In this document: one piece after another, positions 858 to 63,973 of the stretch
Numbering within the stretch: position 1 is the first letter of the stretch
How the letters are laid out: every line of letters begins with the position of its first letter
Source of the DNA: an uncultured Methanosarcinales archaeon
GTDB lineage: Archaea; Nanobdellota; Nanobdellia; Woesearchaeales; CAIVOO01
Reading direction: 5' to 3'
Assembly: GCA_964485195.1 (NCBI GenBank)
Contig: CAZAIK010000001.1
Span: 1 to 64,000 of the forward strand
Length of the DNA stretch: 64,000 nt
Program-made: the position numbers and the translations under genes
The notes under the pieces: generated by a model
What the model was told of the DNA's origin: nothing
The model's input: the letters and a program-made list of their open reading frames with translations, nothing else
Databases searched by the model: none

Positions 858-948
858 GGGCCCGTAGCTTAGCCTGGTTGGAGCGCACGACTGATATCCA
901 AAAAGGTAAGAAATCGTGAGGTCCCGAGTTCAAATCTCGGCGGGCCCA
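858..948 (+). tRNA. tRNA-Ile(GAT) with 16-nt canonical intron (897-912)
   Basis: GGGCCCG/CGGGCCC acceptor stem; CACGA-CT-GAT-A[intron]A-TCGTG; GTTCAAAT T-loop; GAGAAACATTTATAAA promoter. Confidence 0.95.
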
Positions 949-5936: not shown

Positions 5937-6024
5937 GCCCCTGTAGTCCAGTCTGGACAGGATACAAGCTTGCGGAAGAACCTGCAAACAGCTTGCGGCC
6001 CGGGTTCAAATCCCGGCAGGGGCA
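5937..6024 (+). tRNA. tRNA-Arg(GCG) with 14-nt canonical intron (5976-5989)
   Basis: GCCCCTG/CAGGGGC acceptor stem; CAAGC-TT-GCG-G[intron]A-GCTTG; begins immediately after the PHP stop codon. Confidence 0.93.
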
Positions 6025-17964: not shown

Positions 17965-18052
17965 AGCCCCGTGGTGTAGTGGCCAAGCATTCAGGCCTTT
18001 GGAAGCAAACTAAGGACAGCCTGAGACCGCGGTTCAAATCCGCGCGGGGCTA
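17965..18052 (+). tRNA. tRNA-Gln(TTG) with 15-nt canonical intron (18003-18017)
   Basis: AGCCCCG/CGGGGCT acceptor stem; CAGGC-CT-TTG-G[intron]A-GCCTG. Confidence 0.94.
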
Positions 18053-21515: not shown

Positions 21516-22610
21516 TTATTTGCCGAACGTCTTCTTCAGCCTGCTGAAAAAATCCTTTTGCAGAGAAACATCGCTGTGCTTTGCATATTGCTCAAGAATC
21601 TCCTTTTGTTTCTTGTTAAGCTTCCTGGGAACTTCCACCCTCACTTTCACAAACTCGTCTCCGTAAGTGTTTGTCCTGAGCTCGGGCATTCCCTTCCCTT
21701 TCAGCCTGAACAAAGTCTCTGACTGGGTTCCTGGGGGTATTTTAAGCCTGGCCTTTCCGTTAATGGTTGGCACTTCTATCTCGTCGCCGAAAACCGCCTG
21801 CACAAATGTCAGCGGAACCTTGGCCAGAATATCATTTCCCCTTCTCTCAAAGACAGGATGCTTTTTTATGTGAACCGTGACGTACAAGTCGCCGGGAACT
21901 GTGTTTCTTTCGCCAGCCTCTCCCTCGCCGTCAATCCTTATGCTCATCCCGTTGCCAATGCCTTGGGGAATCCTTACTTTTATTTTTCTTTCCTTTATTG
22001 TCCTGCCTTCGCCTCCGCAGGCCCTGCAGGCGTTTTTGGGAATCTCGCCCTCACCCCTGCATTTGTGACAGGTTGTGGTGGTGGAAAAAACACCGAACAA
22101 TGTTCTTTTGGTGGTCTGCATAACTCCCCTTCCGTCGCATACAGGGCATTTTTCAAGGTCTTCCCCTCCCATCCCGTTGCAGGTTTCGCAAACCACATAT
22201 TTCTCAAAAGAAATTGTTTTTTCATCGCCGTGAAATGCACTTTCCAAATCTATTGTGAGCTCATAGTGGAGGTCTGCTCCCTTGTGCCTTCGTCTGCCGG
22301 CACCTCCGAATCCTCCGAAGATGGTGTCAAATATGTCCCCAAAGTCAAATCCGAAATTACCTGCCTGGAAACCTCCTGAGCCGAATCCCTGGAACCCTTC
22401 AGCACTGCCAAAAGTGTCGTACTGCTGCCTGCTCTTTTCATTCCCCAGCACATTATATGCTTCGTTTATCTCCTTGAACCTCTTTTCCGAATCCTTTGAC
22501 TTGTTCAGGTCAGGGTGGTGCTGCTTTGCCAGTTTTTTGTATGCCTTTTTTATCTCTTCCTGGCTTGCATTGCGTGAAACTCCGAGGATTTCATAGTAGT
22601 CCTTTGCCAT
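21516..22610 (-). CDS. dnaJ: chaperone DnaJ
   Basis: HPD J-domain, G/F-rich region, four CxxCxGxG repeats. Confidence 0.98.
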
Positions 22611-22611
22611 A

Positions 22612-24468
22612 TTAACCCTTCTTTTCCTTCTTCTCGTCCTTCTCTTCCTTGAACTCGCCTTCCACTACATCCTCCTTGTCCTCTTTTTTCTGCTCCTGTT
22701 TTTCAGTCTGCGCCTGTTGCTGCTGCGCTTTCTGGTATAATTCTGCAGACATTTCCTGGACAAGCTTGTTGAGCGATTCCATCTTCTGCTTTATGTCAGC
22801 AATGTTCTTCTCGCCCATTGATTTTTTCAGCTCATCAAGCTTTTTCTGCACTTCATCCAGTTTTTTTGCATCTACTTTTCCCTTCAGGTCCTCAAGGACT
22901 TTCTCAGTTGTATACACCAGGGCGTCTGCGTTGTTCAATGTCTCTATCTCATCCATCTTTTTCTTGTCCTCTTCAGCGTGCTGTTCAGCTTCCTCCTTCA
23001 TCTTCTTGACGTCTTCCTCTGAAAGGTTTGTTGAGGCTGTTATGGTTATTGCCTGTTGTTTTCCTGTTCCCAAGTCTTTTGCGCTCACATTAACTATTCC
23101 GTTGGCATCTATGTCAAAGGTAACTTCAATTTGCGGGATGCCTCTCGGGGCTGGGGGTATTCCCACCAGGTCAAACTGGCCTAGCGGATGGTTGTCTGCC
23201 GCCATTGGCCTCTCGCCCTGGAAAACCTTAATCTGCACAGAGGGCTGGTTATCGCTTGCCGTGCTGAAAACCTGGGATTTTTTCGTGGGTATTGTGGTGT
23301 TCTTCTCTATAAGCTTGGTGAAAACTCCCCCCAGAGTTTCTATTCCCAACGACAGGGGCGTAACATCAAGAAGCAGGACATCCTTCACGTCCCCTGCAAG
23401 AACCCCTGCCTGGATTGCCGCTCCCATTGAAACGCATTCCATAGGATCCACTCCCCTTTCTATTGCTTTTCCAACATAGCCCTCAACAAATTTCTGGACT
23501 ATGGGCATCCGGGTAGGGCCTCCCACCATTATGATCTTGTCGACTTCTTCCTTTTTCAGCTTGGCATCTGAGATTGCCCTTTCCATTGATTCTTTTGTCT
23601 TTTCAACTATCGGCTTTACCAGCTCTTCAAGCTTTGCCCTGTTAACCTTCATAACCAGGTGTTTCGGGCCGTTCTGGTCTGCGGTTATGTACGGAAGGTT
23701 AACCTCGGTTTCCAGCGATGTGGAAAGCTCTATCTTGGCTTTCTCCGCAGCTTCGTAAAGCCTCGTCATAGCTGTCTTGTCCTTGGAAATGTCTATGCCT
23801 TCCTGCTTTTTGAATTCCTCAATTATGTGGTTAAGCAGCTTTTCATCCATATCCCTCCCGCCAAGGTTTGTGTCTCCTGATGTTGATTTTACTTCAAAAA
23901 CACCGTCGCCGAATTCCATTATGGTAACATCGAGTGTTCCTCCTCCGAAGTCAAAGACCATTATCTTATGGTCCTTGTCTGACTTGTCCAGCCCGTATGC
24001 AAGGGAGGCTGCTGTTGGCTCATTGATAATCCTCATAACCTCGAGGCCTGCTATCGCTCCTGCGTCCTTTGTCGCCTGTCTTTGCGAGTCATTGAAGTAA
24101 GCTGGCACAGTTATTACAGCTTTTTCCACTTTCTCACCCAGGAATGCTTCAGCATCCTTCTTGATTTTCTGGAGTATGAATGCGGATATTTGCTGGGGAG
24201 TGTATTCCTTTCCGTGAACCTTATATCTGTGTTCTGTGCCCATCTTTCTCTTGGCTCCTGAGATGGTCCCTTCAGGATTGCTCACTGACTGCCTTCTTGC
24301 AGGCTCTCCCACCAGCCTGCTGCCGTCGTTGGTGAAAGCAACCACGCTGGGCACCGTCTTTCCTGCAACAGTGGCTCCTTCAGCGCTTGGGATTATGACA
24401 GGCCTCCCTGCCTCTAGCACTGCTGCAGCTGAGTTTGATGTTCCCAAATCTATTCCTATTATCTTCAT
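22612..24468 (-). CDS. dnaK: chaperone DnaK
   Basis: [33 protein letters not shown]. Confidence 0.99.
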
Positions 24469-24489
24469 TTTTATCACCTTTTAACTTGT

Positions 24490-24852
24490 TCAGCCAAAGT
24501 ATTCCGGCGCGCTCTTTTTGGCGCCGGCTGTTTTCTTCTCGGCTTTCTTCTTCTTTTTCTCTGCTGTTTTTGCAGGTTTTGGCTTCTCTATCCTGCCAAA
24601 ATCCTTTTCATACCTTGTAATGATGTCCTGCATCATCTTTGCCATTTCCTTAATAGCATAAGGCTCGATTATTACAACATTATGCTTCAATGAGAATGTT
24701 GCCCCGTTTTGGTTTCGCGGGTCCACTCTCGGGGAGATGCATTTGAAGTCCACAAAAAAGTGGCTGGGGTTGAAGTTGATTGAAACCTCATTTGCAAAAA
24801 ATGTGTCTCCGTCGCTTATGTTAAGATTAACATTTGATTTTTCTTCAGCCAT
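24490..24852 (-). CDS. conserved hypothetical protein (DUF3467-like)
   Basis: FFANEVSINFNPSHFFVDF...YEKDFGRI; GGAG SD. Confidence 0.7.
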   Translation of the reverse strand: MAEEKSNVNLNISDGDTFFANEVSINFNPSHFFVDFKCISPRVDPRNQNGATFSLKHNVVIIEPYAIKEMAKMMQDIITRYEKDFGRIEKPKPAKTAEKKKKKAEKKTAGAKKSAPEYFG

Positions 24853-24870
24853 TTTACTCCTCCTTGGTTT

Positions 24871-25470
24871 TTATAAGTCTAATTTACCGCCAGCTTCATA
24901 AGTTTCTTTTTGATTTTCTTTTGAATCATCTTTCTCAAAACTTGGTGGTTGTGCCCCTGCAACAGAAGATTTTGCTTGTTTTTCATTAATATTTTTATTC
25001 ATTTTATCTTCCCCCCTTTTTCCAATTTTCACCTTTGCAGTCCTGATTACGTTTCCGTTAAGGGTGTAGCCTTTCTGCATTTCCTCCAGGACTATATTGT
25101 CTTTTTCCGACTCCTCCTGAAGGAGTATCTCCTGGGTGTAAGGGTCAAATTCCTTTCCTTCGCAGTTTATTTTCCGAAGGCCCTCCTCCTCAAGCGCTGA
25201 TATGAGCTGGGCGTAAATCAACTCTGCGCCCTTTTCATCTGTTTTTTCCGCTTTCAAAAGCTGTTCAAAGCTGTCCAGCACTGGAAGCAGTTTTTTTATT
25301 ATCCTTTCTGAAGAGCACTTGACCAGTTCTGAATTTTCCCTTGCAACTCTTTTCTTATAGTTCTCGAATTCTGCCTGCAGCCTTTGCAGGGTGTCTGTCA
25401 ATTCTCCTATTTTCTTCTGCTCTCCTGTCTTTTCTTGCTTGTTATCCTCTTCTTCTTTTTTTGTCATCAT
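24871..25470 (-). CDS. grpE: nucleotide exchange factor GrpE
   Basis: LQAEFENYKKR, LLPVLDSFE, FDPY, QKGY...VIRTAKV. Confidence 0.97.
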   Translation of the reverse strand: MMTKKEEEDNKQEKTGEQKKIGELTDTLQRLQAEFENYKKRVARENSELVKCSSERIIKKLLPVLDSFEQLLKAEKTDEKGAELIYAQLISALEEEGLRKINCEGKEFDPYTQEILLQEESEKDNIVLEEMQKGYTLNGNVIRTAKVKIGKRGEDKMNKNINEKQAKSSVAGAQPPSFEKDDSKENQKETYEAGGKLDL

Positions 25471-31480: not shown

Positions 31481-33244
31481 TCACTCCAAAACAGCCTTGA
31501 TCCTCCTCACGCCTGCAGCAATGCTTTCCTCCTTCTTTATCCTGAAGTGTCCCAGCTCAGCAGTGTTCTTGACGTGGGGCCCTCCGCAGATTTCAAAGGA
31601 AAAGTCCCCTATTTTGTAGGTGGAAACCTTTTCCCCGTATTTCTCGCCGAACATTGCCTGCGCCCCTTTTGCCTTTGCCTCCTCCACAGTCATTTCCTCC
31701 CGGACAACAGGCAGGCCCTCCTCTATCTTCTCATTGACAAGCTCCTCAACCTTTTTCAGCTCTTCCGGAGTCAGTTTCCTGTCAAAATTAAAGTCAAACC
31801 TCAGTCTTTCAGTGGTTATGTTGGAGCCCTTCTGCACAATGTCTCCGGAAACCACCTTTCTTAATGCCTCATTAAGAAGATGTGTTGCTGTGTGCAGTTT
31901 TACAGTCATTTCAGAGGCGTCGCTCAGTCCTCCCTTGAACCTTTTTTCAGCTCCCTCCCTGGAAAGCTGCCTGTGCCTTTCATATTCTTTCTCAAAACTT
32001 TCCCTGTCAACCTTTATGCCTTTTTCCTCGCACAGTTCCTTTGTCATTTCAAACGGAAAGCCGTAACTCTGGAACAATAAAAAAGCGTCCTCTCCTGACA
32101 GCTCCTTTTTTCCCTTGCTTATCTTCTCAAATTCCTTTAGCCCTTTGGTCAGCGCATTCCTGAACTTCATGTCCTCCTTTTCTATCTCGCTAAGGATGAA
32201 ATGCTTGTTCCTTCCAAGCTCATCATACTGCTTCCTGTAGATGTCTATGACTATTTCGGCGAGCTGTGTCAAAAACTCACAATCAATCCCCAGGGAAAGC
32301 CCGTGCCTTATTGATCTTCTTATGAACCTTCTGAGGATGTACCCCTGGTCAACATTTGAGGGGATTATTGCCTTGTCATCCCCGAGGATGAACGTTATGG
32401 ACCTTGCGTGGTCTGTTATTATCCTTATAGACTTCTCCTGTTTCTCATCAGGATTAATTATTTTGGCAAGTTCTTTAATCTTATTTACAATGGGAACAAA
32501 GCTTTCAATTTCATAAACTGTTTTCTTGCCATTCATCATGGCAACTGTCCTCTCAACACCCATTCCCGTATCAACATTCTGCTGCTTCAGCTTTTCAAAA
32601 GTGCCGTCCTTTTTCTTGTTGTATTCCATAAAGACATCATTCCAGATCTCAAAATATTTTCCGCAATCGCACCCGGGCATGCATTCAGGAGAGCATTTTT
32701 CCCTTCCCGTGTCTATGAACATCTCTGTGTCCGGACCGCAGGGGCCTGTCTCGCCTGCAGGGCCCCACCAGTTATCCTCCTTGGGCAGGAAAAAAATCCT
32801 TTCCTTTGGAAGTCCGAGGGACATCCATACTTCAGCAGATGTTTCATCCTTGGGAGCGTCATTGTCGCCTGCAAAGCAGGTAATGTACAAATTGTCAGGA
32901 TTAAAACCCAAAACTTTTGTCAGGAATTCATAACTCCATTCTATAGCATCCTTTTTGAAATAATCACCCAGGGACCAGTTTCCAAGCATTTCAAAAAAAG
33001 TGAGGTGGGTGTCATCACCTACATTGTCAATGTCCACTGTTCTTATGCATTTCTGCACATTGGCCAGCCTTTTTCCAAGAGGATGAGGCTCCCCAAGCAG
33101 GTAAGGCACCAGGGGGTGCATGCCTGCTGTGGTGAAAAGAACTGTGGGATCGTGTTCGGGAATAAGTGAAGCAGATTCTATGATTGAGTGCTCTTTTTCC
33201 CTGAAAAACTCAAGATAGGCCTTTCTCAGTTCTTCTGAATTCAT
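31481..33244 (-). CDS. alaS: alanine--tRNA ligase (short form, no C-Ala domain)
   Basis: LFTTAGM, HLTFFEMLGNWS, DTGMGVER, HTATH, CGGPH. Confidence 0.97.
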   Translation of the reverse strand: MNSEELRKAYLEFFREKEHSIIESASLIPEHDPTVLFTTAGMHPLVPYLLGEPHPLGKRLANVQKCIRTVDIDNVGDDTHLTFFEMLGNWSLGDYFKKDAIEWSYEFLTKVLGFNPDNLYITCFAGDNDAPKDETSAEVWMSLGLPKERIFFLPKEDNWWGPAGETGPCGPDTEMFIDTGREKCSPECMPGCDCGKYFEIWNDVFMEYNKKKDGTFEKLKQQNVDTGMGVERTVAMMNGKKTVYEIESFVPIVNKIKELAKIINPDEKQEKSIRIITDHARSITFILGDDKAIIPSNVDQGYILRRFIRRSIRHGLSLGIDCEFLTQLAEIVIDIYRKQYDELGRNKHFILSEIEKEDMKFRNALTKGLKEFEKISKGKKELSGEDAFLLFQSYGFPFEMTKELCEEKGIKVDRESFEKEYERHRQLSREGAEKRFKGGLSDASEMTVKLHTATHLLNEALRKVVSGDIVQKGSNITTERLRFDFNFDRKLTPEELKKVEELVNEKIEEGLPVVREEMTVEEAKAKGAQAMFGEKYGEKVSTYKIGDFSFEICGGPHVKNTAELGHFRIKKEESIAAGVRRIKAVLE

Positions 33245-52113: not shown

Positions 52114-52518
52114 ATGAAGATAGACAACCTGACTCAGGAAATAGGAGAGCTTCAGAAGTACGAGACGCCGAAGAAGAATATTCTTCAGAGAATCCTGGAT
52201 ATTCTCGGAAGGCTGCAGGCTGCAGAGGATTATGAGCGAATAAAGGAAGAACTCAGCCACCTTCTGAACGCCTTGAACAGGATAGACGCTGTGATTAATG
52301 GCCAGGTCAAGAGGTTCAAAAAGAACAAGAGAGTTGCGGAAAAGCTGACCAGGCAGCAGCAGGTAATTGCAGACCTGAGGAGGCTGATAAGGTTTTACCA
52401 AAGCAATACCGAGGCCAGAATACTTAATGAAACTTACGGAAAGATTTTTGAGGCAATCCAAAGTTTTATAACACTTTCTAACCAGGTGGTTGAAAAGGCT
52501 GCAAAAAAGGCGGCGTGA
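52114..52518 (+). CDS. hypothetical helical protein
   Basis: 134-aa ORF coupled to both neighbours. Confidence 0.7.
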   Translation: MKIDNLTQEIGELQKYETPKKNILQRILDILGRLQAAEDYERIKEELSHLLNALNRIDAVINGQVKRFKKNKRVAEKLTRQQQVIADLRRLIRFYQSNTEARILNETYGKIFEAIQSFITLSNQVVEKAAKKAA

Positions 52519-52520
52519 AA

Positions 52521-54332
52521 ATGAAGATCGAAAGGCTTGTACCGGACACATCTGTAATAATCGAGGGAATAGTCTCAAAAAGACTGGAAAAAAAGGAAAT
52601 AATCGCTGAGACAGTAATAATCCACGAGGCCATTCTCGCTGAACTAGAGCATCAGGCCAACCTGAACAAGTCAGTCGGCTCTTTTGGCCTGGAAGAAATT
52701 AAAAAGATAAAGACCATTTCCAAAAAGCTGGGTTTTGAAGTGGAGTTCATGGGGCAAAGGCCCAAATCTTCTGAGATAAGATATGCAAAGCTTGGCGAGA
52801 TAGACGCAAGGATAAGGGATCTTGCCTATGAAAATGGGGCCACGCTCATTACTGCCGACAGGGTGCAGGCAAAGGTTGCAGAAGCCAAAGGCATTTCCCT
52901 CATTTTCGTTGAGCTTAAGACCAGGCCCAGGAAAATCCGGTTAGAGCAGTTTTTTGACAAGAACACCATGAGCATACACTTGAGAGAGAATATTGAGGCG
53001 TATGCGAAAAAGGGAAGCCCTGGAAAATGGGATTTCACCAGGACTTCTTCAAAAAAGCTGAAGCAGGAAGAGATAAAAGAAATTTCCAGGGAAATCATTG
53101 AGGAAGCAAGTTCAAGAAGGGACAGCTTTATTGAAATTGAAAGGACAGGCTCCACCATTGTCCAGATGGGTAATTACAGGATAGTTATCATAAGGCCGCC
53201 ATTCTCGGACGGGTGGGAGATAACAGCAGTAAGGCCTGTAAAAAAACTCAGCTTGGAAGATTACAATCTTTCTGAAAAGATGAAAAAAAGGCTGGAGGAG
53301 CAGGCTGAGGGCATCCTTATCGCAGGAGCTCCGGGAATGGGAAAAACCACGTTTGCACAGGCGCTGGCTGAGGAGTTTTCCTCAAAGAACAAGATAGTCA
53401 AGACAGTGGAGGCCCCCAGGGATTTAGTTCTTCCGGACAACATAACCCAGCTTGCGATTTCTCACGGAGATCCCCAGGAGATACACGATATCTTATTGCT
53501 TTCAAGGCCTGACTACACGCTCTTTGATGAGATGAGGAACACAAAGGATTTCGCTCTTTTCTCTGACCTCAGGCTCGCAGGTGTGGGTATGGTGGGAGTC
53601 ATTCACGCAACAACCCCCATAGATGCAGTGCAAAGATTCATTGGAAGAATAGAGCTTGGGGTGATACCACACATAGTGGACACTGTTCTTTTTATCAAGA
53701 ACGGGGCAGTAGCCAAGGTATTTAATGTTGTTATGGAAGTCAAGGTTCCTTCAGGAATGACAGAAAGCGACTTGGCAAGGCCTGTGGTTGTAGTCTCGGA
53801 TTACGAAACTGAGATTCCAGAATTCGAGATTTACAGTTATGGGGAGCAGACAGTGGTGATACCCATTCAGGAAGGAGGAGCAGCATCCCCCCTTCAAAAA
53901 CTGGCCAAGAGGCAGATATTGAGGGAACTGCAAAAGTACTCTGAAGAACTTAAAGTAGAGTTCATATCTGACAGCAGAATTGCTTTGTATGTTCCTGAAA
54001 AAAATGTATCCTCAATCATAGGCAGGGAAGGCCGAAACATCGACAAGCTGGAGGAAAGATTGGGGGTAGGCATTGATGTGCGAACCCTTGAAAGGGAGGA
54101 AAAGCCAAAAAAGAAAGTGCCCTACCAGATGGAGCAGAGGGGCAACAGCATAGTGATGTTCGTGGACAAAAAGTTTGCCAACCAAAACATGGACATTATG
54201 GTAAATGAGGAATATCTCCTCACTGTGAACGTGGGCAGGAAAGGGGACATCAGGATTAAGAAGAACAACAAAATAGGGAAGACAATTCTGAATGCTTTGA
54301 AATACGGAGAGGATGTTAAGATTGTTCAGTAA
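52521..54332 (+). CDS. PIN-domain ATPase with KH domain (PINA)
   Basis: VPDTSVII, GAPGMGKT, FDEMR, IIGREG. Confidence 0.93.
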   Translation: MKIERLVPDTSVIIEGIVSKRLEKKEIIAETVIIHEAILAELEHQANLNKSVGSFGLEEIKKIKTISKKLGFEVEFMGQRPKSSEIRYAKLGEIDARIRDLAYENGATLITADRVQAKVAEAKGISLIFVELKTRPRKIRLEQFFDKNTMSIHLRENIEAYAKKGSPGKWDFTRTSSKKLKQEEIKEISREIIEEASSRRDSFIEIERTGSTIVQMGNYRIVIIRPPFSDGWEITAVRPVKKLSLEDYNLSEKMKKRLEEQAEGILIAGAPGMGKTTFAQALAEEFSSKNKIVKTVEAPRDLVLPDNITQLAISHGDPQEIHDILLLSRPDYTLFDEMRNTKDFALFSDLRLAGVGMVGVIHATTPIDAVQRFIGRIELGVIPHIVDTVLFIKNGAVAKVFNVVMEVKVPSGMTESDLARPVVVVSDYETEIPEFEIYSYGEQTVVIPIQEGGAASPLQKLAKRQILRELQKYSEELKVEFISDSRIALYVPEKNVSSIIGREGRNIDKLEERLGVGIDVRTLEREEKPKKKVPYQMEQRGNSIVMFVDKKFANQNMDIMVNEEYLLTVNVGRKGDIRIKKNNKIGKTILNALKYGEDVKIVQ

Positions 54333-54385: not shown

Positions 54386-55666
54386 ATGCTGGAAATAAGA
54401 TTCGTGAGGGAAAACCCCAATATTGTCAAGAAGGACCTTGAAAAAAGAAAGGAAAAAGACAAGGCCAAGTGGGTGGATGAAGTTCTTAAGCTTGACGAGG
54501 AGTGGAGAAAACTTAAGGGCCAGGCAGATGAATTAAGAAGCAGGCGGAACAAGCTTTCCCAGGAAATCAACAAGCTGAAAAAAGAGGGAAAAGAGGCAGC
54601 AAAACCAATTAAGGAAGCAAAGGAGCTGCCTGGCAAGATAGACAAGCTGGAAAAAACCTTGGAAGAAAAGGAGAAAAAGATAAAGCATTATCTTATGAGA
54701 ATTCCTAACATACTTCACGAATCAGTTCCGCAGGGGGACACAGAGAAGGACAACGAGGAAGTGGCTAAATTCGGTAAGCCCCAAAGGTTTAGCTTTGAGC
54801 CGAAATCCCACGTTGACATTCTTGAGCAAAACTACCTTGCCGACCTTGAGAGAGCTGCCAAGATTTCAGGAGCGAGATGGTATTTCCTAAGGGGGGATCT
54901 GGCGCTGCTTGAAATGGCCCTTGCAAGATATGCTGTTGATTTTATGACAAGCAAAGGGTACACTCTTATGATTCCTCCGCATATGATGCACAGGAAGGCA
55001 TACGAAGGGGTAACCTCCCTGGACGATTTTGAAGAGATGCTCTACAAAGTTGAAGGGGAAGATTTATACCTTATCGCAACCTCAGAGCATCCTCTTACAG
55101 CAATGTGGATGGAAGAGGTTCTGGACCCAAAATGCCTGCCTATCAAAATGGCCGGGTTCAGCACGAATTTCAGGAAAGAAGCAGGAAGCCACGGAAGGGA
55201 CACCAAAGGAATCTTCAGGACGCACCAGTTCAACAAGGTGGAGCAGATAGTGGTTTGCAGGCCGGAAGATTCGTGGAAGTTCCACGAAGAATTAAGGAAA
55301 AACCTGGAGGAATTTTTCAAAAGCCTCGGACTGCACATAAGGACTGTTAATATCTGCACAGGAGACATAGGAATTGTTGCCGCAAAGAAATATGATGTTG
55401 AGGTATGGATGCCTGCGCAGGAAAAATTCAGGGAAGCTGGCTCCTGTTCAAACTGCACATCATACCAGGCAGTAAGACTTAACATCAGGTATAACGCAAA
55501 GGAAGGCAATGAGTATGTCCATACGCTAAACAGCACCTGTGTTGCAACAGGAAGAGCCTTGGCGGCAATACTTGAAAATTTCCAGCAGAAGGACGGAACT
55601 GTGAAGATTCCTGACGTCCTGTTTCCTTATATGAATGGAAAGAAAACCATCGGGTTCAAAAAGTGA
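54386..55666 (+). CDS. serS: serine--tRNA ligase
   Basis: LIATSE, FRKEAG, HQFNKVE, HTLNST. Confidence 0.98.
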   Translation: MLEIRFVRENPNIVKKDLEKRKEKDKAKWVDEVLKLDEEWRKLKGQADELRSRRNKLSQEINKLKKEGKEAAKPIKEAKELPGKIDKLEKTLEEKEKKIKHYLMRIPNILHESVPQGDTEKDNEEVAKFGKPQRFSFEPKSHVDILEQNYLADLERAAKISGARWYFLRGDLALLEMALARYAVDFMTSKGYTLMIPPHMMHRKAYEGVTSLDDFEEMLYKVEGEDLYLIATSEHPLTAMWMEEVLDPKCLPIKMAGFSTNFRKEAGSHGRDTKGIFRTHQFNKVEQIVVCRPEDSWKFHEELRKNLEEFFKSLGLHIRTVNICTGDIGIVAAKKYDVEVWMPAQEKFREAGSCSNCTSYQAVRLNIRYNAKEGNEYVHTLNSTCVATGRALAAILENFQQKDGTVKIPDVLFPYMNGKKTIGFKK

Positions 55667-55674
55667 GGTGCTAA

Positions 55675-55965
55675 ATGGGAAAGAAAAAGAAGAAATCAAT
55701 ATGGGACGCGGAATATAAAGAGGATTCCACGGAATACGCAAGAGAGAGGGGAATGGAGGATGAAGAGGAAGAGCACGAAGGAACCCATATGGAAGCCAAA
55801 GATGATATAGAAAGAGGTTTGGAAGAAGAGAACATCTATTCCGAAGAGGGAAGGAATCTTGAAAGGGAAGAGGACGCTTTGGAAGACTGGGAGCAGGGCT
55901 TTGCTGAGGGGGCCGAGAGCAAAAGCCCTTTAAGGAAGATTAAGAAAAAGAAGAAAAGGTCATAG
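55675..55965 (+). CDS. small acidic hypothetical protein
   Basis: GAGGTG SD; IYSEEGR...WEQGFAEG. Confidence 0.75.
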   Translation: MGKKKKKSIWDAEYKEDSTEYARERGMEDEEEEHEGTHMEAKDDIERGLEEENIYSEEGRNLEREEDALEDWEQGFAEGAESKSPLRKIKKKKKRS

Positions 55966-57882
55966 TCCCACTGAGCCCATAAAAATCTTTTTAACCCCCT
56001 GCAGCCTTCTTATCCTTTCAATCATCTCCTTGATATGCTCAAGGTCCTCTAAATTAAGCTTAAAACTGCATTCAGCCATATTGTTGCCTATTACCTTGGC
56101 GTTTGCATTCTGAATGCTGGCCCCAGTGAATGTGATAGTGTTTAGTATATCTGCGAACAGGCCGGGCCTGTCAAGTGCTTCTATTTTAAGAGTTATTACG
56201 TCATCGAAATGCTGCCTCCATTCAACTTTAACTTTTTTCTTGGCTGCTTTTTCATAAGCTTTGCAGTCCTTCCTGTGAACAGTAACTGTGTCTGTTTTTG
56301 AGGTAAGCCCTATTATTTTGTCTCCTGGGTTTGGGGTGCAACAGCTGGCCAGCTTAAACTTGGGTTTGCTGACAGCTTCACACACCAGAATGCCTGTTGC
56401 CTTGTCACCCAAGTCCTCCTTTTCCTTTTTCTTCATGGCCTTGGCAGGCAGCTTCTCCTTTTCCTGCACAGCCTTCTTTATCTTGTGCAGGGCTTTTGTG
56501 GTCTTGGCTATGTTAAGCCAGCTCCTGCTGGGCCTTTGAGTTTTTGAGGTTATTACTTCAACAACATCCCCTGTTTTAAGGGGATACCTCAATGAAACAA
56601 ACATTCCATTAACCTTTGCGCCCATACAATGGTTACCTATTTCAGAGTGCACTGAATAAGCGAAATCAAGAGGGGTTGAGCCGTTGGGCAGCTCTATTAC
56701 ATCCCCCCTGGGAGTAAATGTGTAAATCTCATCCTTGAAAAAATCTATCTCCAAGGATTCTATGAATTCCTTTGCCGTGTCTGATTCCTGCTGCCAGTCT
56801 ATAATCTCCTTAAGCCAGGACAGCTTTTTGTCAAATTCCGTCCCCTTGCCCAGTCCCTTGTACTGCCAGTGGGCAGCTATGCCCTCCTCAGCCACCTCTT
56901 CCATCTCCCTGGTCCTTATCTGGACCTCTACCACCCTGCCTTCGGGAGTAAGCATAACATCGTGCAGCGACTGATACATATTTACCTTGGGCATTGCAAT
57001 GTAATCCTTGAACCTTCTCGGGATGGGCTTCCAGGTGTTGTGGAGAAGTCCCAAAATCTTGTAGCAGTTTGCAACGCTGTCAGTTATTATCCTTACTCCA
57101 ACCACATCAAAAATTTCCTCAAATGACCTGTTCTTTCTTTTCATTTTTCTGTAGATGGCATATGCTGTCTTCAGCCTTCCTATAATTTCCGAAGGGATTG
57201 AATTTTCCTTCAAAAGAGAATTAAGCTGTTTTTTCAGCTTGCTGATCTCCTTTTCCCTCTCCTTAATTCTTGACTTTACTTTTGAATTAATCTCACTGTA
57301 TCTCTCGGGCTGGGTATAACGGAATGCCAAATCCTCTAACTGGCTTTTTACCCTGTGAATACCCAGCCTGTAAGCCAAAGGGGTATATATGCCCATTACC
57401 TCTTTTGCTATCCTGAGCTGTTTTTCCCTGGGAAGGTAATTCAGGGTGCGCATATTATGCAGCTTGTCCAGGAGTTTAATGATTAAAATCCTGATGTCTT
57501 TGGCTGTGGCGAAAAGCATCTTTCGTATGGACTCAAACTGGTATTCTTCCCTGCCTTTTGACTTCAGCTGTGTGAGTTTTGTGAGGCCGTCCACTATCAT
57601 GGCAACGTCTTTGCCAAACTCTTTCTCTATGAACTTCAGCGGGTACTCGGCGTTTTCTATGACATCGTGAAGAAGGGCTGCGCATACAGATTCTGTGTCC
57701 ATCTTGAAATCAGCAGCCAGGTTTGCCACCTCCAGCGGATGCACAATGTAAGATTCGCCAGATGCCCTCTTCTCCCCCTTATGCGCCTTCACAGCCGTTT
57801 CATGTGCCTTTCTAATCAAAGCTGTGTCAGCATCCTTGTCATAGGACTTCACTTTTCTTATGATGGTATCTATCTTGATCAT
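55960..57882 (-). CDS. long RelA/SpoT homolog (HD-SYNTH-TGS-ZFD-ACT)
   Basis: RASGESYIVHP, LLHDVIEN, DKLHNMRTL, RFKDYIAMPK.NMYQSLH, EVQIRT, AAHWQYK, TPLDFAY, CCTP.PGD, DRPGL. Confidence 0.96.
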   Translation of the reverse strand: MIKIDTIIRKVKSYDKDADTALIRKAHETAVKAHKGEKRASGESYIVHPLEVANLAADFKMDTESVCAALLHDVIENAEYPLKFIEKEFGKDVAMIVDGLTKLTQLKSKGREEYQFESIRKMLFATAKDIRILIIKLLDKLHNMRTLNYLPREKQLRIAKEVMGIYTPLAYRLGIHRVKSQLEDLAFRYTQPERYSEINSKVKSRIKEREKEISKLKKQLNSLLKENSIPSEIIGRLKTAYAIYRKMKRKNRSFEEIFDVVGVRIITDSVANCYKILGLLHNTWKPIPRRFKDYIAMPKVNMYQSLHDVMLTPEGRVVEVQIRTREMEEVAEEGIAAHWQYKGLGKGTEFDKKLSWLKEIIDWQQESDTAKEFIESLEIDFFKDEIYTFTPRGDVIELPNGSTPLDFAYSVHSEIGNHCMGAKVNGMFVSLRYPLKTGDVVEVITSKTQRPSRSWLNIAKTTKALHKIKKAVQEKEKLPAKAMKKKEKEDLGDKATGILVCEAVSKPKFKLASCCTPNPGDKIIGLTSKTDTVTVHRKDCKAYEKAAKKKVKVEWRQHFDDVITLKIEALDRPGLFADILNTITFTGASIQNANAKVIGNNMAECSFKLNLEDLEHIKEMIERIRRLQGVKKIFMGSVGL

Positions 57883-57936
57883 AGTATTACATAATACAAA
57901 GAAATATTTAAATATATCATCACACAAAGCTGTATT

Positions 57937-59010
57937 ATGGGGTTTTTCAGCAATACACAGGGAGGGGAGTCCATATTCGTAAACGAGCTGGCTTTAGATT
58001 ACACATTCGTGCCGAAGCTGATCCCGTTCAGGGAAATGCAGCAGAAATACATAGCCAGCTGTATAAAGCCTTTATTTTCCAAGCGGAACGGCAAGAATAT
58101 CATACTTCACGGCCCTCCGGGAGTAGGAAAAACAGTTGCCACCAGGCACATCCTCAACGAGCTGGAAGAAGAAACTGATGAGATAATCCCCATTTACATT
58201 AACTGCTGGAACAAGAACACCAGCTACAAGATAGTTATTGAGCTGTGTGACATACTCGATTATAAATTCACGCAGAACAAGAAAACAGAGGAATTGTTTG
58301 CAATTATCAAAAACATACTGAACAAGAAATCCGCTGTTTTTGTCTTTGACGAGATAGACAAGGTAGAGGATTACAATTTTCTTTACACGCTTCTGGAGGA
58401 CATTTACAGGAAGACCATAATCTTAGTCACCAACTACAAGTCATGGGTTAATGAGCTGGACGACAGGATTAAATCAAGACTGGTGCCTGAGACAGTTGAA
58501 TTCAGGAAATACTCCCAGTCTGAAATCAAGGGGATTCTGAAGGAAAGGGCCAGCTACGCCTTCGCTTCCAACTGCATTCACGAGAATGTTTTTGACTTTC
58601 TCGCCAGGACCACTGTAGAGAAGGGGGATGGCGATGTGAGGATAGGCTTGTATCTTATGCGCGAAGCTGGATTGATAGCTGAAGCGCAGGATTCAGGATG
58701 CATTATGATTCAAAATGCCCAGGAAGCCGCCAGCAAGCTTATTGACTTTTCCATCAAAAAAAGCGAAGAGCTTGATGAGGATGCCAGGAAAGTCCTCAGC
58801 ATTATCAAGATGCAGAATGGGGGAAAGATAGGGGAATTGTTCAAGTCCTATCAGGACGAGGGAGGCAATCTCTCCTACAAGTCATTCCAGAGGAAAATCA
58901 GCAAGCTGAATGAGAACAAGTTCATTAACACTGAGAAGATTATGGGAGGTTCTGAAGGGACCACCACCATGATAAAGCTCCCTCAGGAAAGGAAGCTTAC
59001 GGAGTTTTAA
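57937..59010 (+). CDS. cdc6: Cdc6/Orc1 family AAA+ ATPase
   Basis: PFRE, GPPGVGKT, YINC, FDEID, GDVR. Confidence 0.9.
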   Translation: MGFFSNTQGGESIFVNELALDYTFVPKLIPFREMQQKYIASCIKPLFSKRNGKNIILHGPPGVGKTVATRHILNELEEETDEIIPIYINCWNKNTSYKIVIELCDILDYKFTQNKKTEELFAIIKNILNKKSAVFVFDEIDKVEDYNFLYTLLEDIYRKTIILVTNYKSWVNELDDRIKSRLVPETVEFRKYSQSEIKGILKERASYAFASNCIHENVFDFLARTTVEKGDGDVRIGLYLMREAGLIAEAQDSGCIMIQNAQEAASKLIDFSIKKSEELDEDARKVLSIIKMQNGGKIGELFKSYQDEGGNLSYKSFQRKISKLNENKFINTEKIMGGSEGTTTMIKLPQERKLTEF

Positions 59011-60258: not shown

Positions 60259-60402
60259 TTAATTCTTCTTTTTCTTTGGTTTATCCCAATAAGCAGATTT
60301 GCATTTTGGGCATAAGATTGGATACTCTTTTTTTCTAGGAATCCATTCATGTTTGCAACGTTCACATTTGTATCCTTTTACTTGTATCTTTATTTCAGCC
60401 AT
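60259..60402 (-). CDS. small zinc-ribbon protein (47 aa, not in ORF track)
   Basis: YKCERCKHEWIPR...CPKCKSAYWD. Confidence 0.8.
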   Translation of the reverse strand: MAEIKIQVKGYKCERCKHEWIPRKKEYPILCPKCKSAYWDKPKKKKN

Positions 60403-60464: not shown

Positions 60465-61022
60465 TTATTTAGCATTTTTATCAACAATTAGTTTAATTTT
60501 TAGCATTTTACTAACTAAATTTTCAAATGATAATTTTACTAAAGAATCCTCGCTTATTTCACCTATATTATGAGCATTACCAATAACAATTGGTGGGATT
60601 ACAATGCATCCCATAGATAATAAAAAATCCAATAGTGTATTTAATGTTTGGATTTTACCATTCCCACCAAATCTTCCTATACAAACAACACCAACAATTT
60701 TATCTTCAAAATTTTTATTATTAATTAATAAAGATGATGTTCTTTCAATAAAACTTTTTACTTTTGATGGAACATCTAACCTATAGACAGGAGTTGCTAT
60801 TATTACCTTATTGAAATTATTTATTTTTTCTATAAGCTCTTCAAATTGATCTTTTATTTTACATTTCCCAATCTTATTACACTCCCCACATCCTTCACAG
60901 GGTTGAATATCATAATCAGATAAATTTATGATCTCACAATTGTTTTTTGGGATAGTACTTAGCAGAATGTAACAATTTCCTTTTCTCGGACTGCAGTTTA
61001 TAGCTAGAATCTTATTTTCCAT
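60465..61022 (-). CDS. iron-sulfur flavoprotein / flavodoxin-like
   Basis: SPRKGN, CEGCGECNKIGKC, ATPVY. Confidence 0.9.
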   Translation of the reverse strand: MENKILAINCSPRKGNCYILLSTIPKNNCEIINLSDYDIQPCEGCGECNKIGKCKIKDQFEELIEKINNFNKVIIATPVYRLDVPSKVKSFIERTSSLLINNKNFEDKIVGVVCIGRFGGNGKIQTLNTLLDFLLSMGCIVIPPIVIGNAHNIGEISEDSLVKLSFENLVSKMLKIKLIVDKNAK

Positions 61023-62022
61023 TTTCAATCACCAAATTACAAAAATTATTCTTAAAAATGCCTCCATTACAAGTATTAAATGCTTTACAGCCTCCTCGAC
61101 AGAGTTTATTAAACTTACAGGTTTTGCATTTCCTTTTTAATAAACTGATATCAAAACATCGATTGTATGAAAAAGATTTTTTAGAATTCCATACTTTTAA
61201 TAAATCATGACATTTGATATTTCCTTCAACATACCTATCAGGCAAAGCTAAACAACCTTTGATATCCCCATTATAACTAATTGAAAAATGAGTTAAACCA
61301 GCTGTACAACCAAACCATTTGTTGAGTCTTGTATTTTTATCAGCTTTTGAGAAATAACCCATTGAATCTCCAACAGAAATAATAAATTTATTTTCATTTT
61401 TTTTAGATATCCATTTACATAAATTATATACTTCTTTGGGTAAAAGAAGAAATTCTTTTTTCATTCTTCCTTCAAAATATCCTATTTGAATTCTCCAAGA
61501 AAAAATGTTTCTAGAACGGAGAATATCATAAAGATCATCCAAAGATTGGAAAGAATAGTTTTGCTTTATTATTGTAGAGATTATGCTTACATTAAATCCT
61601 TCTTTTAAAAGCCAATCAATATTTTTAAGCACTATTTTGAATTTTGCTCCTTTTCTTACTTTATTATGGTATTCCTCATTACCATCTAAACTCACTGAAA
61701 TATTTAAAGGATCTATAACTTTTAATTTAGCTATTATGTCTTTATTAAGGATTGTACCATTAGTAATCAAAAATATTTCTATCCCCTTTTCTTTAATTTC
61801 CTTAAGAATTGTAAACCAATCTTCTCGCAAAAAAACTTCTCCACCTAAAATATTAACCACTTTTATTTCAAGTTTTGATAGTTTTTTGCTTAAATTTAAA
61901 GAACTATCTAAGTCTAACTCATCATTTAGTTTACTATCTGCATTTGAGCCACAATAAATACATTGACCATTACACTTCCGAGTTAATTCCCAAGCTACTG
62001 AAAACGGTTTACCGTTTATCAT
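61012..62022 (-). CDS. radical SAM protein with SPASM domain
   Basis: CNGQCIYC, GGE, TNG, SLDG, CTAG...GDIKGC, CKTC...CRGGC...C; ATG 62022 preferred over TTG 62106. Confidence 0.92.
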   Translation of the reverse strand: MINGKPFSVAWELTRKCNGQCIYCGSNADSKLNDELDLDSSLNLSKKLSKLEIKVVNILGGEVFLREDWFTILKEIKEKGIEIFLITNGTILNKDIIAKLKVIDPLNISVSLDGNEEYHNKVRKGAKFKIVLKNIDWLLKEGFNVSIISTIIKQNYSFQSLDDLYDILRSRNIFSWRIQIGYFEGRMKKEFLLLPKEVYNLCKWISKKNENKFIISVGDSMGYFSKADKNTRLNKWFGCTAGLTHFSISYNGDIKGCLALPDRYVEGNIKCHDLLKVWNSKKSFSYNRCFDISLLKRKCKTCKFNKLCRGGCKAFNTCNGGIFKNNFCNLVIENGK

Positions 62023-62026
62023 TAAA

Positions 62027-62173
62027 TTAAACAAATGGATTATTGTTTTGGGAATACTCTTTAAGCATAGCAAGTAGTTTCTTTGCTCTATTGTCTTGTG
62101 GCTCAAAGAGTTTTTCAGACTCTATACTTGCACAGTATACTAATCCAAATCCGTAAGTTATGGCTTTGTTCAT
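62027..62173 (-). CDS. 48-aa ORF, candidate substrate peptide (not in ORF track)
   Basis: MNKAITYGFGLVYCASIESEKLFEPQDNRAKKLLAMLKEYSQNNNPFV; AAGGT SD; stops 4 nt before the rSAM ATG. Confidence 0.5.
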   Translation of the reverse strand: MNKAITYGFGLVYCASIESEKLFEPQDNRAKKLLAMLKEYSQNNNPFV

Positions 62174-62267
62174 ATTACCTTTTTAGCCATTAGATTATTT
62201 AAAATTTATTATCAATATTTTTACAAAAGGGCAAAATTTATATACTATTTATGACATATTGTATAAT

Positions 62268-63233
62268 ATGGTTAAAATAGATAAATTGGACAGAAAAATC
62301 ATGGCTGAACTTGATATGAATGCAAGAATTCCAATTACTCAATTAGCCAAAGCTGTAAGATCATCAAGAGAAGTTGTAAACTATAGAATAAAAACACTAA
62401 TAAAAAGAGGAATAATATCTGGAACTCAAACTTTTTTTAATCCAGCTAAAGTTGGATACAGTATTTATCGAGTTTTAGTAAGATTAGATTCATTAGACGA
62501 AGGAATTATTAATAGGTTTCAAAATTTTTTTATTAAGCACGATTCTGTGATGTGGTTTGCAAAGCTTGGAGGGAAATGGGATTATGTAATTGAATTTTTT
62601 GCAAAAAGTGGTGATGAATTTAATACCCTTTTGAAGAATTCATTTGAACAATTTGGAAGTTTGATTAAATTATATGAGATTATGACTATCCTAGAAATCT
62701 ATTCACACAATAGAAAATACATTTATGATAATAAAAAACATAAAATTTTTAAAATTGGTGGAAGAATTGAAAATATCAAATTAGACGAAGTTGATAAAAA
62801 TATAATCAAACAATTGAAAGATAATGCTCGTTTAACAAATCTAGAAATTGGCGAAAAACTAAAATTAGCAAGAAATACAATTAAATACCATATTAAAAAA
62901 TTAGAAGAGAATAGAGTAATTCAAGGATACAAGTTATTCTATCACCCTCAAAGAATAGGTTATCAATCATATAAATTATTAATTTCTATGGATAATCTGA
63001 ATCAAATAATGGAGAAAAAATTTTTTATATTTGCTCAACAAAACAAAAATATTATTTTTGCACATAAAAACTTGGGAAAATGGAATTATGAATTTGAAAT
63101 TGAAATCGAAGACATGATAAAATTACAAGAGATTATTATAGAACTTAGAGTGATATTTAAAGAAAATGTAATTGATTATGAATTATTCCCAATTTTACAT
63201 GATTATAGAATTAATTTATTCCCCTACCTTTGA
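62268..63233 (+). CDS. tandem Lrp/AsnC transcriptional regulator
   Basis: Two HTH+RAM units (LD..D..I...L..NAR...; GKWDY / GKWNY). Confidence 0.92.
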   Translation: MVKIDKLDRKIMAELDMNARIPITQLAKAVRSSREVVNYRIKTLIKRGIISGTQTFFNPAKVGYSIYRVLVRLDSLDEGIINRFQNFFIKHDSVMWFAKLGGKWDYVIEFFAKSGDEFNTLLKNSFEQFGSLIKLYEIMTILEIYSHNRKYIYDNKKHKIFKIGGRIENIKLDEVDKNIIKQLKDNARLTNLEIGEKLKLARNTIKYHIKKLEENRVIQGYKLFYHPQRIGYQSYKLLISMDNLNQIMEKKFFIFAQQNKNIIFAHKNLGKWNYEFEIEIEDMIKLQEIIIELRVIFKENVIDYELFPILHDYRINLFPYL

Positions 63234-63343
63234 ATTTCTATGGATTTTCTTTACCACTCTATTTTGAGAAGAAACTAGCACCCGCTAAAGTAACAATGAA
63301 GCAGATACATAACTTTTATAAAGGCAAATCCTGGATAGATGAT

Positions 63344-63973
63344 ATGGTATTTAACAGTCCACAATGGTTCAATATAGTTTCAACATTTTATCATCTTATT
63401 TCTTTCCTGGTTGCTGGTGCAATAACCTTGCTTGGCTATAAAGCTTATAAACTGATGAAGTCAAAGAAATACCTTAATTTCGCGCTGGCCTTCTTTTTCA
63501 TCACTCTCTCATTCATAGTGCTTGCAATTACAAACATTCTTGTTTACTTCAACCTGGGAACCGAAATCTTCAGGATTTTTTCCATAATCAATATTGGGTT
63601 CATAATATACGCGCTGCTGACAATAGCAGGTTTTTTCCTGCTTGTGATGCTGACATTTAAGGTAAAGGATGTGAAGATAATAGCAATACTGGCTGTTGGA
63701 ATGATCGCTGCGCTGGCTTTACTCCCATTCATAAAGACATTTCATACAATCCTGCTAGCGCTGACTTTGCTGCTTTCATACTGCTTTTACGAAAACTGCA
63801 AAAGAAAAAAAACTGTGAACTCAAAACTTGTGTTTTCTGCGTTTATCCTGATGATGACATCTCACATTTTCAGCCTGGCAAGCGGAGCTAATGAGCTGAT
63901 ATTTATCATAGGGAACACTGTTCTTGTTATAGGCTACACCTTGCTGTTAATAACTATCCTGAGGTTTAAATGA
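63344..63973 (+). CDS. polytopic membrane protein (~7 TM)
   Basis: Repeated hydrophobic helices; TATA at ~63314 supports ATG 63344. Confidence 0.8.
   Translation: MVFNSPQWFNIVSTFYHLISFLVAGAITLLGYKAYKLMKSKKYLNFALAFFFITLSFIVLAITNILVYFNLGTEIFRIFSIINIGFIIYALLTIAGFFLLVMLTFKVKDVKIIAILAVGMIAALALLPFIKTFHTILLALTLLLSYCFYENCKRKKTVNSKLVFSAFILMMTSHIFSLASGANELIFIIGNTVLVIGYTLLLITILRFK

Follow-up and report, generated by a model that had tools for sequence, protein, structure and literature searches.

A Rel-type long RSH gene with a shortened helical linker, divergent from orc1/cdc6, in a Woesearchaeota-like archaeon

Can an archaeal chromosome harbour a genuine long RelA/SpoT homologue (RSH), i.e., the multi-domain enzyme of (p)ppGpp signalling known from bacteria? 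This question is raised by a gene on contig CAZAIK010000001.1 (assembly GCA_964485195.1, recorded as an uncultured Methanosarcinales archaeon), of which positions 1 to 64,000, hereafter the window, were analysed. The gene is located on the reverse strand next to an orc1/cdc6 replication initiator gene (Table 1). It is probably a vertically inherited chromosomal gene of a Woesearchaeota-like DPANN archaeon, encoding a functional long RSH of the Rel type. A preceding sequence-only reading had proposed a bacterial-type long RSH in an archaeal chromosome, and the gene indeed proved real and conserved, as judged from its open reading frame (ORF), its Pfam and TIGR00691 matches, its clade, and its synteny. 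The premise that archaea lack long RSHs is out of date, since passages of a 2021 comparative genomics study give RelA/SpoT in 41.7% of Woesearchaeota, with a predicted bacterial origin (PMC8407392). The presence of RSHs in DPANN archaea is thus already known, and the observation is less new than first claimed.

Domain composition, linker and clade

The RSH frame spans 55960..57927 (-) and is intact. Its ATG at 57882 yields 640 amino acids (aa), and this start is supported by the closest relatives, which have 640-643 aa and cover the query completely (100%). With 693.4 bits the protein lies above the cutoff (499.2) of the NCBIfam family TIGR00691 (spoT_relA). The HD domain, a synthetase domain with its catalytic residues, the TGS domain, the zinc finger/RIS, and the ACT domain were all found in the order typical of long RSHs, except for the helical (AH) linker between TGS and zinc finger. 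Hence the earlier statement that all long-RSH domains are present in order applies to these five domains, but not to the AH helical domain, which is largely missing. The motifs RFKD, YQSLH, and EVQIRT, a zinc finger of the Cys/Cys/His/Cys type, and the hydrolase motif HDVIEN in place of HDxxED had been named from the letters alone, and every one of them is present in the translation. According to a passage of PMC2666561, RXKD marks the bifunctional, GTP-preferring Rel enzymes. The RFKD of the window protein agrees with this type, while its HDVIEN deviates from the HDxxED of bifunctional Rel/SpoT proteins in the last D, which is replaced by N. The protein also departs from the monofunctional RelA class, with RFKD instead of EXDD, with H, D, and E of HDxxED present, and with a score of 434.7 bits for the NCBIfam RelA equivalog NF008124, below its cutoff of 728.

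Among solved structures, B. subtilis Rel 6yxa comes closest by sequence (E 3e-157), along with other Rel/RelA chains. The AlphaFold model has a mean pLDDT (predicted local distance difference test) of 79; its catalytic half superimposes on S. aureus Rel 7oiw_A with a template modelling (TM) score of 0.95 and a root-mean-square deviation of 1.8 A, and its ACT region adopts a beta-alpha-beta-beta-alpha-beta fold.

In case of the linker, the profile PF19296 (RelA_AH_RIS) matches with 19.1 bits, below its cutoff of 23.8, and the match spans profile positions 73-172 of 185, so that positions 1-72 remain unmatched. The full-length solved Rel 8fr8_I matches in two blocks separated by about 100 residues, compared to about 22 in the query, which makes the linker about 78 residues shorter; the zinc finger and ACT domain align to residues 649-791 of 8fr8_I. 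In the AlphaFold model, linker helices occur only at residues 453-457 and 462-476, and residues 480-495 have a pLDDT below 50 and are disordered. For bacterial RelA, a passage of Arenz et al. describes five helices between TGS and zinc finger (PMC5291266).

From a scan of species-representative genomes, 286 relatives emerged as confirmed, and the analysis kept the best 80 of them. Four of these are archaeal by record title, L001, L002, L003, and L004, with 70%, 60%, 50%, and 48% identity, respectively, and most of the remaining ones are titled Rokubacteria or Methylomirabilota, probably found via a shared motif. In the protein search, the first approximately 40 matches comprise 605-663 aa and none of them carries PF19296 among its precomputed domains. 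The matches that follow comprise about 713-730 aa, show about 50% identity over 72-80% of the query, and all carry PF19296; those with names belong to Clostridia or other Bacillota. A FastTree phylogeny was computed from 213 rows, i.e., 40 short proteins, 149 cluster representatives of an exhaustive search, 18 translated loci, and 6 long proteins (5 of them named). In this tree 53 rows, all short, form one group with a support of 99, and 57 rows group with a support of 89. With IQ-TREE (96 rows, site-heterogeneous model) all 32 short rows fall on one side of a branch with a support of 91 in the Shimodaira-Hasegawa-like approximate likelihood ratio test, and a 28-row core reaches 99. Evidence for an archaeal host exists for 13 of the 57 short-clade rows, namely the window, L001-L004, P0036 (named "Nanoarchaeota archaeon"), and seven cases of coincidence with cdc6 (see below), and evidence for a bacterial host for none. 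In these phylogenies the short proteins of about 640 aa form one clade among longer Rel proteins, which is archaeal wherever its members can be placed and which reaches down to about 40% identity.

The distance between W455 and C514, i.e., between TGS and zinc finger, is 58 residues in the window RSH and 48-66 in all 57 short-clade rows; of the 156 other rows, 144 have 97-150. The remaining 12 rows have distances of 43-89; ten of them are scattered and have 67-89, and two, with 43 and 64, are C-terminally truncated. Two of the 12 lack the zinc-finger cysteine. Judged from these alignments, approximately 70-80 linker residues are absent across the whole clade.

Two further RSH genes of 713-717 aa occur under the archaeal titles L023 (Nitrosotalea sp.) and L070 (Candidatus Nitrosocosmicus sp.), both ammonia-oxidising archaea by title. 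Their products fall into a tight group with rows of Rokubacteria/Methylomirabilota and other bacterial phyla, with branches of 0.02-0.04, which points to mis-binning of bacterial contigs instead of long RSHs of archaea.

Residue conservation and predicted activity

Residues were counted in a 47-sequence alignment of the clade. Query positions plus 5 correspond to B. subtilis Rel numbering (ungapped alignment to 6yxa), which we take to coincide with RelSeq numbering; the roles of the individual HD residues and the metal-ligand positions are likewise presumed. The equivalents of the synthetase residues D264, D298, Y308, H312, E323, and Q325 are each conserved in 47/47 sequences. The same applies to the TGS histidine (query His412, presumably the equivalent of RelA His432) and to C515, H536, and C540 of the zinc finger, with C514 present in 46/47. 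In a larger set of 55 members, synthetase, TGS-histidine, and zinc-finger residues are all found in 55/55. Judged from these alignments, synthetase and sensor residues are under long-term purifying selection.

Within the HD domain, H53 and H77 (47/47), R44 (46/47), D144 (45/47), and N148 (44/47) are well kept, D78 (43/47) and E81 (42/47) less so, and the last Asp of HDxxED is found in 31/47. The window RSH retains R39, H48, H72, D73, E76, D139, and N143 in query numbering, including the four presumed metal-ligand positions and the equivalents of R44, E81, and N148, and N77 replaces the last D. At this position the 17 closest sequences have D in nine, T in four, N in two (the window and P0005), E in one, and a gap or S in one case. 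In seven deeper clade members HDxxED is almost entirely lost. In the short clade 37 of 55 rows have an intact motif, versus 149 of 156 among the longer rows (Fisher p = 3e-7, relatedness ignored), and at least eight changes between the intact and non-intact state are required on the tree. In these comparisons HDxxED is eroded repeatedly in the clade, with HDVIEN of the window as a mild case that is not clade-wide. Mean identity in the closest subclade amounts to 0.70 for the HD domain and 0.72 for the synthetase domain. With the two domains equally conserved as a whole, the HD fold is kept even where the motif is lost. An association of the hydrolase-motif state with RXKD or EXDD was considered as well and dismissed for lack of correlation: EFDD occurs in four members that keep HDxxED, and members with a degenerate HD motif keep xxKD.

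What we infer, namely enzyme activities, trigger, promoter, and direction of transfer, would fit together as follows. Most likely a bacterial bifunctional Rel was acquired once, in an old transfer, and about 70-80 linker residues were lost afterwards or were already missing on arrival. The synthetase would move pyrophosphate from ATP to the 3'-OH of GTP or GDP and thereby make (p)ppGpp, with RFKD suggesting, by analogy, a preference for GTP. The C-terminal module of TGS, zinc finger, and ACT would gate the activity and hold the enzyme off until a signal arrives. Hydrolysis by the HD domain would be weakened rather than abolished, with the metal ligands kept and the last acid of HDxxED changed from D to N. 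The transcript would be leaderless, starting from an archaeal TATA element common to the divergent orc1/cdc6 gene.

In bacteria the C-terminal module reads the 3' end of uncharged tRNA on the ribosome. H38, S19, and L16 are universal parts of ribosomes, and since the contacted parts are universal, the bacterial sensing mode is conceivable on an archaeal ribosome. Passages on bacterial RelA describe that TGS reads the tRNA end, with His432 near C74 of the tRNA, that the CC domain binds H38 and S19, that the ACT domain binds H38, H43, and L16, and that TGS and CC/ACT occupy sites far apart, with the five-helix linker wrapped around the tRNA (PMC5291266). With the linker missing, the geometry on the ribosome must differ from this mode.

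A serious, though in our view less likely, alternative is an active enzyme that has lost its dependence on the ribosome. TGS, zinc finger, and ACT would then serve only as an internal switch or as a ligand sensor, perhaps of amino acids, a nucleotide, or uncharged tRNA in free form, and the trigger would not be the "hungry ribosome" of bacteria. Such a loss of ribosome dependence would be in agreement with the 70-80 linker residues missing in every clade member and with the linker remnant being the least conserved part of the RSH (mean identity 0.46 in the closest subclade). However, the TGS histidine and the zinc-finger residues, which are kept in 46 or all 47 sequences, belong to domains that in bacteria meet the tRNA end and the ribosome, the ribosome parts concerned are universal, and the disordered stretch of about 30 residues together with one helix could still bridge the gap.

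A second explanation concerns the HD domain, which in the window organism might be a regulatory pseudo-hydrolase, leaving a monofunctional synthetase like E. coli RelA; we regard this as rather unlikely. HDVIEN and the repeated erosion of HDxxED in the clade point in this direction, and so do passages of PMC2666561 and PMC8012599, in which the absence of HDxxED is the stated cause of the missing hydrolysis in RelA, and of PMC8012599, according to which a catalytically dead HD domain can be retained as a regulator. On the other hand, only one of the four conserved motif residues is changed, and conservatively so, all seven HD residues listed above are retained, RFKD is not the EXDD of monofunctional RelA, and the score for the RelA equivalog (435 versus 728) lies below its cutoff. 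No literature was found on what happens when the last Asp of HDxxED (E81/D82) alone is replaced, and these terms do not occur in PMC3153485 or PMC6606846. The suggestion of the sequence-only reading that the enzyme is synthetase-biased is plausible insofar as the last HDxxED residue is lost, this position is unusually variable in the clade, and the synthetase residues are invariant. However, the retained metal ligands and the conserved HD domain speak against a complete loss of hydrolysis.

Several points count against a functional, vertically inherited Rel-type enzyme of bacterial origin. The enzyme activity of the clade members is predicted from sequence, the state of HDxxED in the clade and the D-to-N change leave the hydrolase status in doubt, and the short linker may prevent the bacterial binding mode, so that the trigger may differ. 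An organism with a synthetase only would need another way of removing the product; of other alarmone genes (small synthetase, small hydrolase, Nudix, Ppx/GppA) none was found among the ORFs scanned in the 64-kb window (sets of 8, 26, and 22, with ORFs below about 150 aa mostly left out). In the trees, which are unrooted, sister group and donor are weakly supported (16-24 at the relevant nodes), and the direction of transfer is deduced from the position of the clade within the longer proteins, few of which are named (as bacterial). Finally, the archaeal character of the clade is based on 13 of its 57 rows.

Chromosomal setting and the spacer shared with orc1/cdc6

The window harbours genes of archaeal context, namely Orc1/Cdc6, NreA, Hel308 with intein matches, an ATP-dependent DNA ligase, and an S13/S15-type ribosomal protein, and furthermore genes for SMC, FtsZ, RNase HII, and a DnaK-DnaJ-GrpE set. 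Orc1/Cdc6 passes TIGR02928 marginally (182.8 bits versus a cutoff of 181.3) and matches PF22703 (Cdc6_lid) with 3.6e-11. Its named relatives are "Candidatus Woesearchaeota archaeon" and "Nanoarchaeota archaeon" proteins with 57-59% identity, due to which we presume a Woesearchaeota-like DPANN archaeon as host. The RSH gene has a guanine+cytosine content (GC) of 0.446 and a third-codon-position GC (GC3) of 0.534, and its codon frequencies correlate with those of pooled core genes with r = 0.93, equal to serS, PINA, and SMC. The described location among core genes (serS, PINA) was confirmed by the TIGR00414 match of serS and the neighbouring gene of a PINA-like ATPase.

In L001 the order of the window is retained with RSH, serS, PINA, orf134, DUF2391, and RNase HII, and the contig stops inside the RSH gene. 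In L002 the order is cdc6, an ORF of 265 aa without known family, RSH, an acidic ORF, and serS, with RSH divergent from the orf265-cdc6 pair across 43 bp; serS thus adjoins RSH in both. For L003 and L004, the archaeal status of which rests mainly on the record titles, no neighbours in common with the window locus were observed; RSH of L004 is flanked by Elp3 and P-type ATPases (NCBIfam), and the flanks in L003 gave little. In the closest sub-lineage RSH is linked to cdc6; in L003 and L004 it is not. Among the 16 RSH relatives nearest to the window in the protein tables, seven share the size of their longest contig with a cdc6 relative (18168, 10217, 52605, 30964, 28893, 157282, and 9368 bp), which was used as a proxy for linkage. 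For these seven and L002, identities of RSH and cdc6 to the window are correlated (Spearman 0.96, n = 8, p = 2e-4), as vertical co-inheritance predicts.

In the window, the last 6 bp of the lysine-rich acidic ORF between serS and RSH lie within the 3' end of RSH. A Lys/Glu/Asp-rich ORF at the same place in L002 (9926-10261) is a weak homologue (tblastn 4.9e-7) and belongs to no known family either.

At 60465-63230, a compositionally foreign block has a GC of 0.25-0.27 and a GC3 of 0.16-0.20, compared to 0.44 and about 0.5 elsewhere. Its genes code for a tandem Lrp/AsnC regulator and for proteins resembling an FMN reductase and a radical SAM/SPASM maturase. Beyond the block, the ORF at 63230-63973 has a homologue just beyond cdc6 in L002, due to which the block is explained as an insertion in a continuous chromosome and not as a chimeric end. 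At the edge of this block, a 47-aa ORF (60259-60402, -) has two Cys-x-x-Cys pairs and a lysine-rich tail; it is zinc-ribbon-like and has no Pfam match.

That the RSH gene is a recent, sporadic transfer, decaying and without a role in the host, is highly improbable. The imperfect hydrolase motif would fit, as would the treatment of archaeal RSHs as sporadic transfers in passages of PMC3153485, but the reading frame runs uninterrupted over 640 codons, synthetase and sensor residues do not vary in a clade that extends to about 40% identity, RSH and cdc6 diverge in parallel, the composition of the gene is fully adapted, and RelA/SpoT is reported for 41.7% of Woesearchaeota, as cited above. Still less credible is an assembly or binning artefact that brought a gene from bacteria onto the archaeal contig: although the closest named relatives outside the clade are Clostridia/Bacillota Rel proteins with about 50% identity and the foreign block starts at about 60.4 kb, only some 2.5 kb away, the gene order is repeated in two other archaeal genomes with 70% and 60% identity, GC, GC3, and codon use match the core genes, in L002 the homologue of the gene past the low-GC block lies on the far side of cdc6, and the RSH start codon lies in an archaeal-style promoter geometry. 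The sequence-only reading had named a chimeric assembly and a sporadic recent transfer absent from relatives as the findings that would speak against it; the former is contradicted by conserved synteny, composition, and promoter geometry and the latter by the deep clade and the co-divergence with cdc6. The RSH gene is neither a chimera nor a recent import.

Exactly 54 bp separate RSH and cdc6, as described before. Within this spacer the perfect palindrome ATATTTAAATAT is located 21 nt from either ATG, with about 26 nt from its centre to each ATG, and occurs twice in the 64-kb window compared to 0.01 expected; the other copy is situated upstream of the tRNA gene at 17965. The palindrome contains TTTAAATA on both strands, which fits the consensus of the archaeal TATA box. 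Two overlapping TATA boxes or a shared one probably drive leaderless transcripts in both directions. L002 and L004 likewise have TATA-like AT runs, located 20-30 nt ahead of their RSH start codons. A scan for bacterial sigma-70 promoters and terminators gave 7 and 6 sites versus 7.4 and 5.7 expected, this being the wrong promoter type for an archaeon.

In case of the proposed coupling to replication control, nothing beyond gene order and promoter geometry was found. The linkage is absent in L003 and L004, the 54-bp arrangement is lost in L002, and repeated origin-box-like elements near cdc6 were detected neither in a repeat search of 55-61 kb nor on reading the 860-bp gene-poor stretch at 59.6-60.46 kb, which contains only small ORFs and one GC-rich hairpin; a search with an origin-box consensus was not made. 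It is tempting to speculate, though we consider it improbable, that this DPANN lineage runs a genuine (p)ppGpp system with a linker-shortened sensor rebuilt for archaeal ribosomes or free tRNA, and that in the sub-lineage of the window RSH and orc1/cdc6 are placed on one bidirectional switch with a palindromic TATA element.

Table 1. Features of the RSH locus; positions refer to the window and residues to the RSH protein unless stated otherwise.
Feature	Position	Strand	Details
PINA-like ATPase gene	52515-54332		
serS (seryl-tRNA synthetase)	54386..55666	+	TIGR00414 516 bits, cutoff 302; convergent with RSH
Acidic, lysine-rich ORF, 96 aa	55675..55965	+	between serS and RSH; without Pfam family
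Long RSH (Rel-type) gene	55960..57882	-	640 aa + stop; ATG at 57882; TIGR00691; relatives 640-643 aa
ACT (RRM-like) domain	55984..56196	-	residues 563-633; Pfam ACT_4 PF13291 4.2e-15
Zinc-finger/RIS (conserved-cysteine) domain	56248..56388	-	residues ~499-545; C514, C515, H536, C540; beta strands in model
Helical linker (AH) remnant	56389..56547	-	residues 446-498; 5-residue and 15-residue helix, then disorder
TGS domain	56548..56727	-	residues 386-445; Pfam TGS PF02824 4.2e-23
(p)ppGpp synthetase domain (predicted)	56854..57180	-	residues 235-343; Pfam RelA_SpoT PF04607 4e-41; RFKD, YQSLH, EVQIRT
HD (hydrolase) domain	57358..57807	-	residues 26-175; Pfam HD_4 1.1e-43
HDVIEN motif	57652-57669	-	residues 72-77
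Divergent spacer, 54 bp	57883..57936	.	palindrome ATATTTAAATAT at 57904-57915
orc1/cdc6 replication initiator	57937..59010	+	divergent from RSH; TIGR02928, Pfam Cdc6_lid, AAA_22

Relation to known systems and further observations in the window

The window RSH resembles the bifunctional Rel of Bacillota (B. subtilis 6yxa/6htq, S. aureus 7oiw, RelSeq 1vj7) in the order of HD, synthetase, TGS, zinc finger/RIS, and ACT, in RFKD of the RXKD type, in all synthetase residues, and in the HD metal ligands; identity to B. subtilis Rel 6yxa amounts to 48% over 474 aligned columns. It differs in the absence of about 70-80 AH-linker residues, in HDVIEN compared to HDVVED/HDVIED, and in being encoded by an archaeon behind a putative archaeal-type promoter. 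With E. coli RelA (5iqr, 5kpv, 5l3p), the monofunctional ribosome-dependent stringent factor, it shares the overall fold (Foldseek E 6e-41), the TGS histidine, and the zinc-finger cysteines. In contrast, RelA lacks HDxxED, has EXDD, and possesses the full five-helix linker, whereas the window RSH keeps three of the four motif residues, has RFKD, and falls below the NF008124 cutoff.

The DPANN RelA/SpoT proteins of PMC8407392 almost certainly represent the same gene family and host group. The relevant passages of that study give presence and predicted bacterial origin only; domain architecture, motif status, clade structure, and neighbourhood do not occur in them. In passages of Atkinson et al. 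2011 (PMC3153485), only small RSHs are reported for archaea and long RSHs are stated to be absent. The window RSH, being multi-domain, is unlike the sporadic euryarchaeal small alarmone synthetases and hydrolases described there, which are single-domain members of the RSH superfamily. A 2020 RefSeq census (supplement file 1 of PMC7229694) has at least 428 archaeal mentions; among the entries listed are no Woesearchaeota, Pacearchaeota, Nanoarchaeota, or Diapherotrites, and the one DPANN genome in them has 0 RSHs. Archaeal RSH proteins also occur among NCBI protein names. Clade-wide linker loss, an invariant synthetase and sensor as opposed to HDxxED erosion, and linkage or co-divergence with cdc6 were not found described in our literature searches.

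In current texts (p)ppGpp still counts as a bacterial and plastid signal; in a passage of a 2026 paper it is "found in Bacteria and plants" (PMC13725321). The gene described here shows long-term retention of a complete multi-domain Rel enzyme, with strictly conserved synthetase and sensor residues, in some uncultured archaea, and the question of archaeal alarmone use becomes answerable through expression of one gene. Furthermore, the clade represents a natural experiment on the roles of the helical linker, which was mostly lost, and of the hydrolase motif, which was lost repeatedly. In DPANN cells with little biosynthesis of their own, an alarmone could pace growth to the supply by the host.

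Apart from the RSH locus, several translation-linked genes of the lineage look bacterial in type, as judged from family scores. A short AlaRS of bacterial type is encoded at 31481-33244 of the window (NF002436, 916 bits), and a bacterial-type AspRS is situated in L002 (12226-14010; NF001750, 823 bits), two genes from serS. DnaJ, DnaK, and GrpE genes at 21516-25470 (-) represent a bacterial-type chaperone system, which is found in some archaea.

Three of the four tRNA matches in the window (858-948, 5937-6024, and 17965-18052) have a length of 88-91 nt. ARAGORN in bacterial mode missed one tRNA and gave odd anticodon positions in two; the long matches are consistent with putative intron-bearing archaeal tRNAs.

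The Hel308-like helicase (1029 aa) and the ATP-dependent DNA ligase (929 aa) are encoded at 2041-5130 and 6979-9768, respectively. In case of the helicase, matches to intein models are located in the middle of the protein, and in case of the ligase the family match is confined to residues ~614-922, preceded by a long extra N-terminal part. Adjacent to the ligase gene, a protein of 696 aa (9803-11893, -) contains a ParB/Spo0J-type domain only at residues ~399-529, an unusual size for a ParB-like protein.

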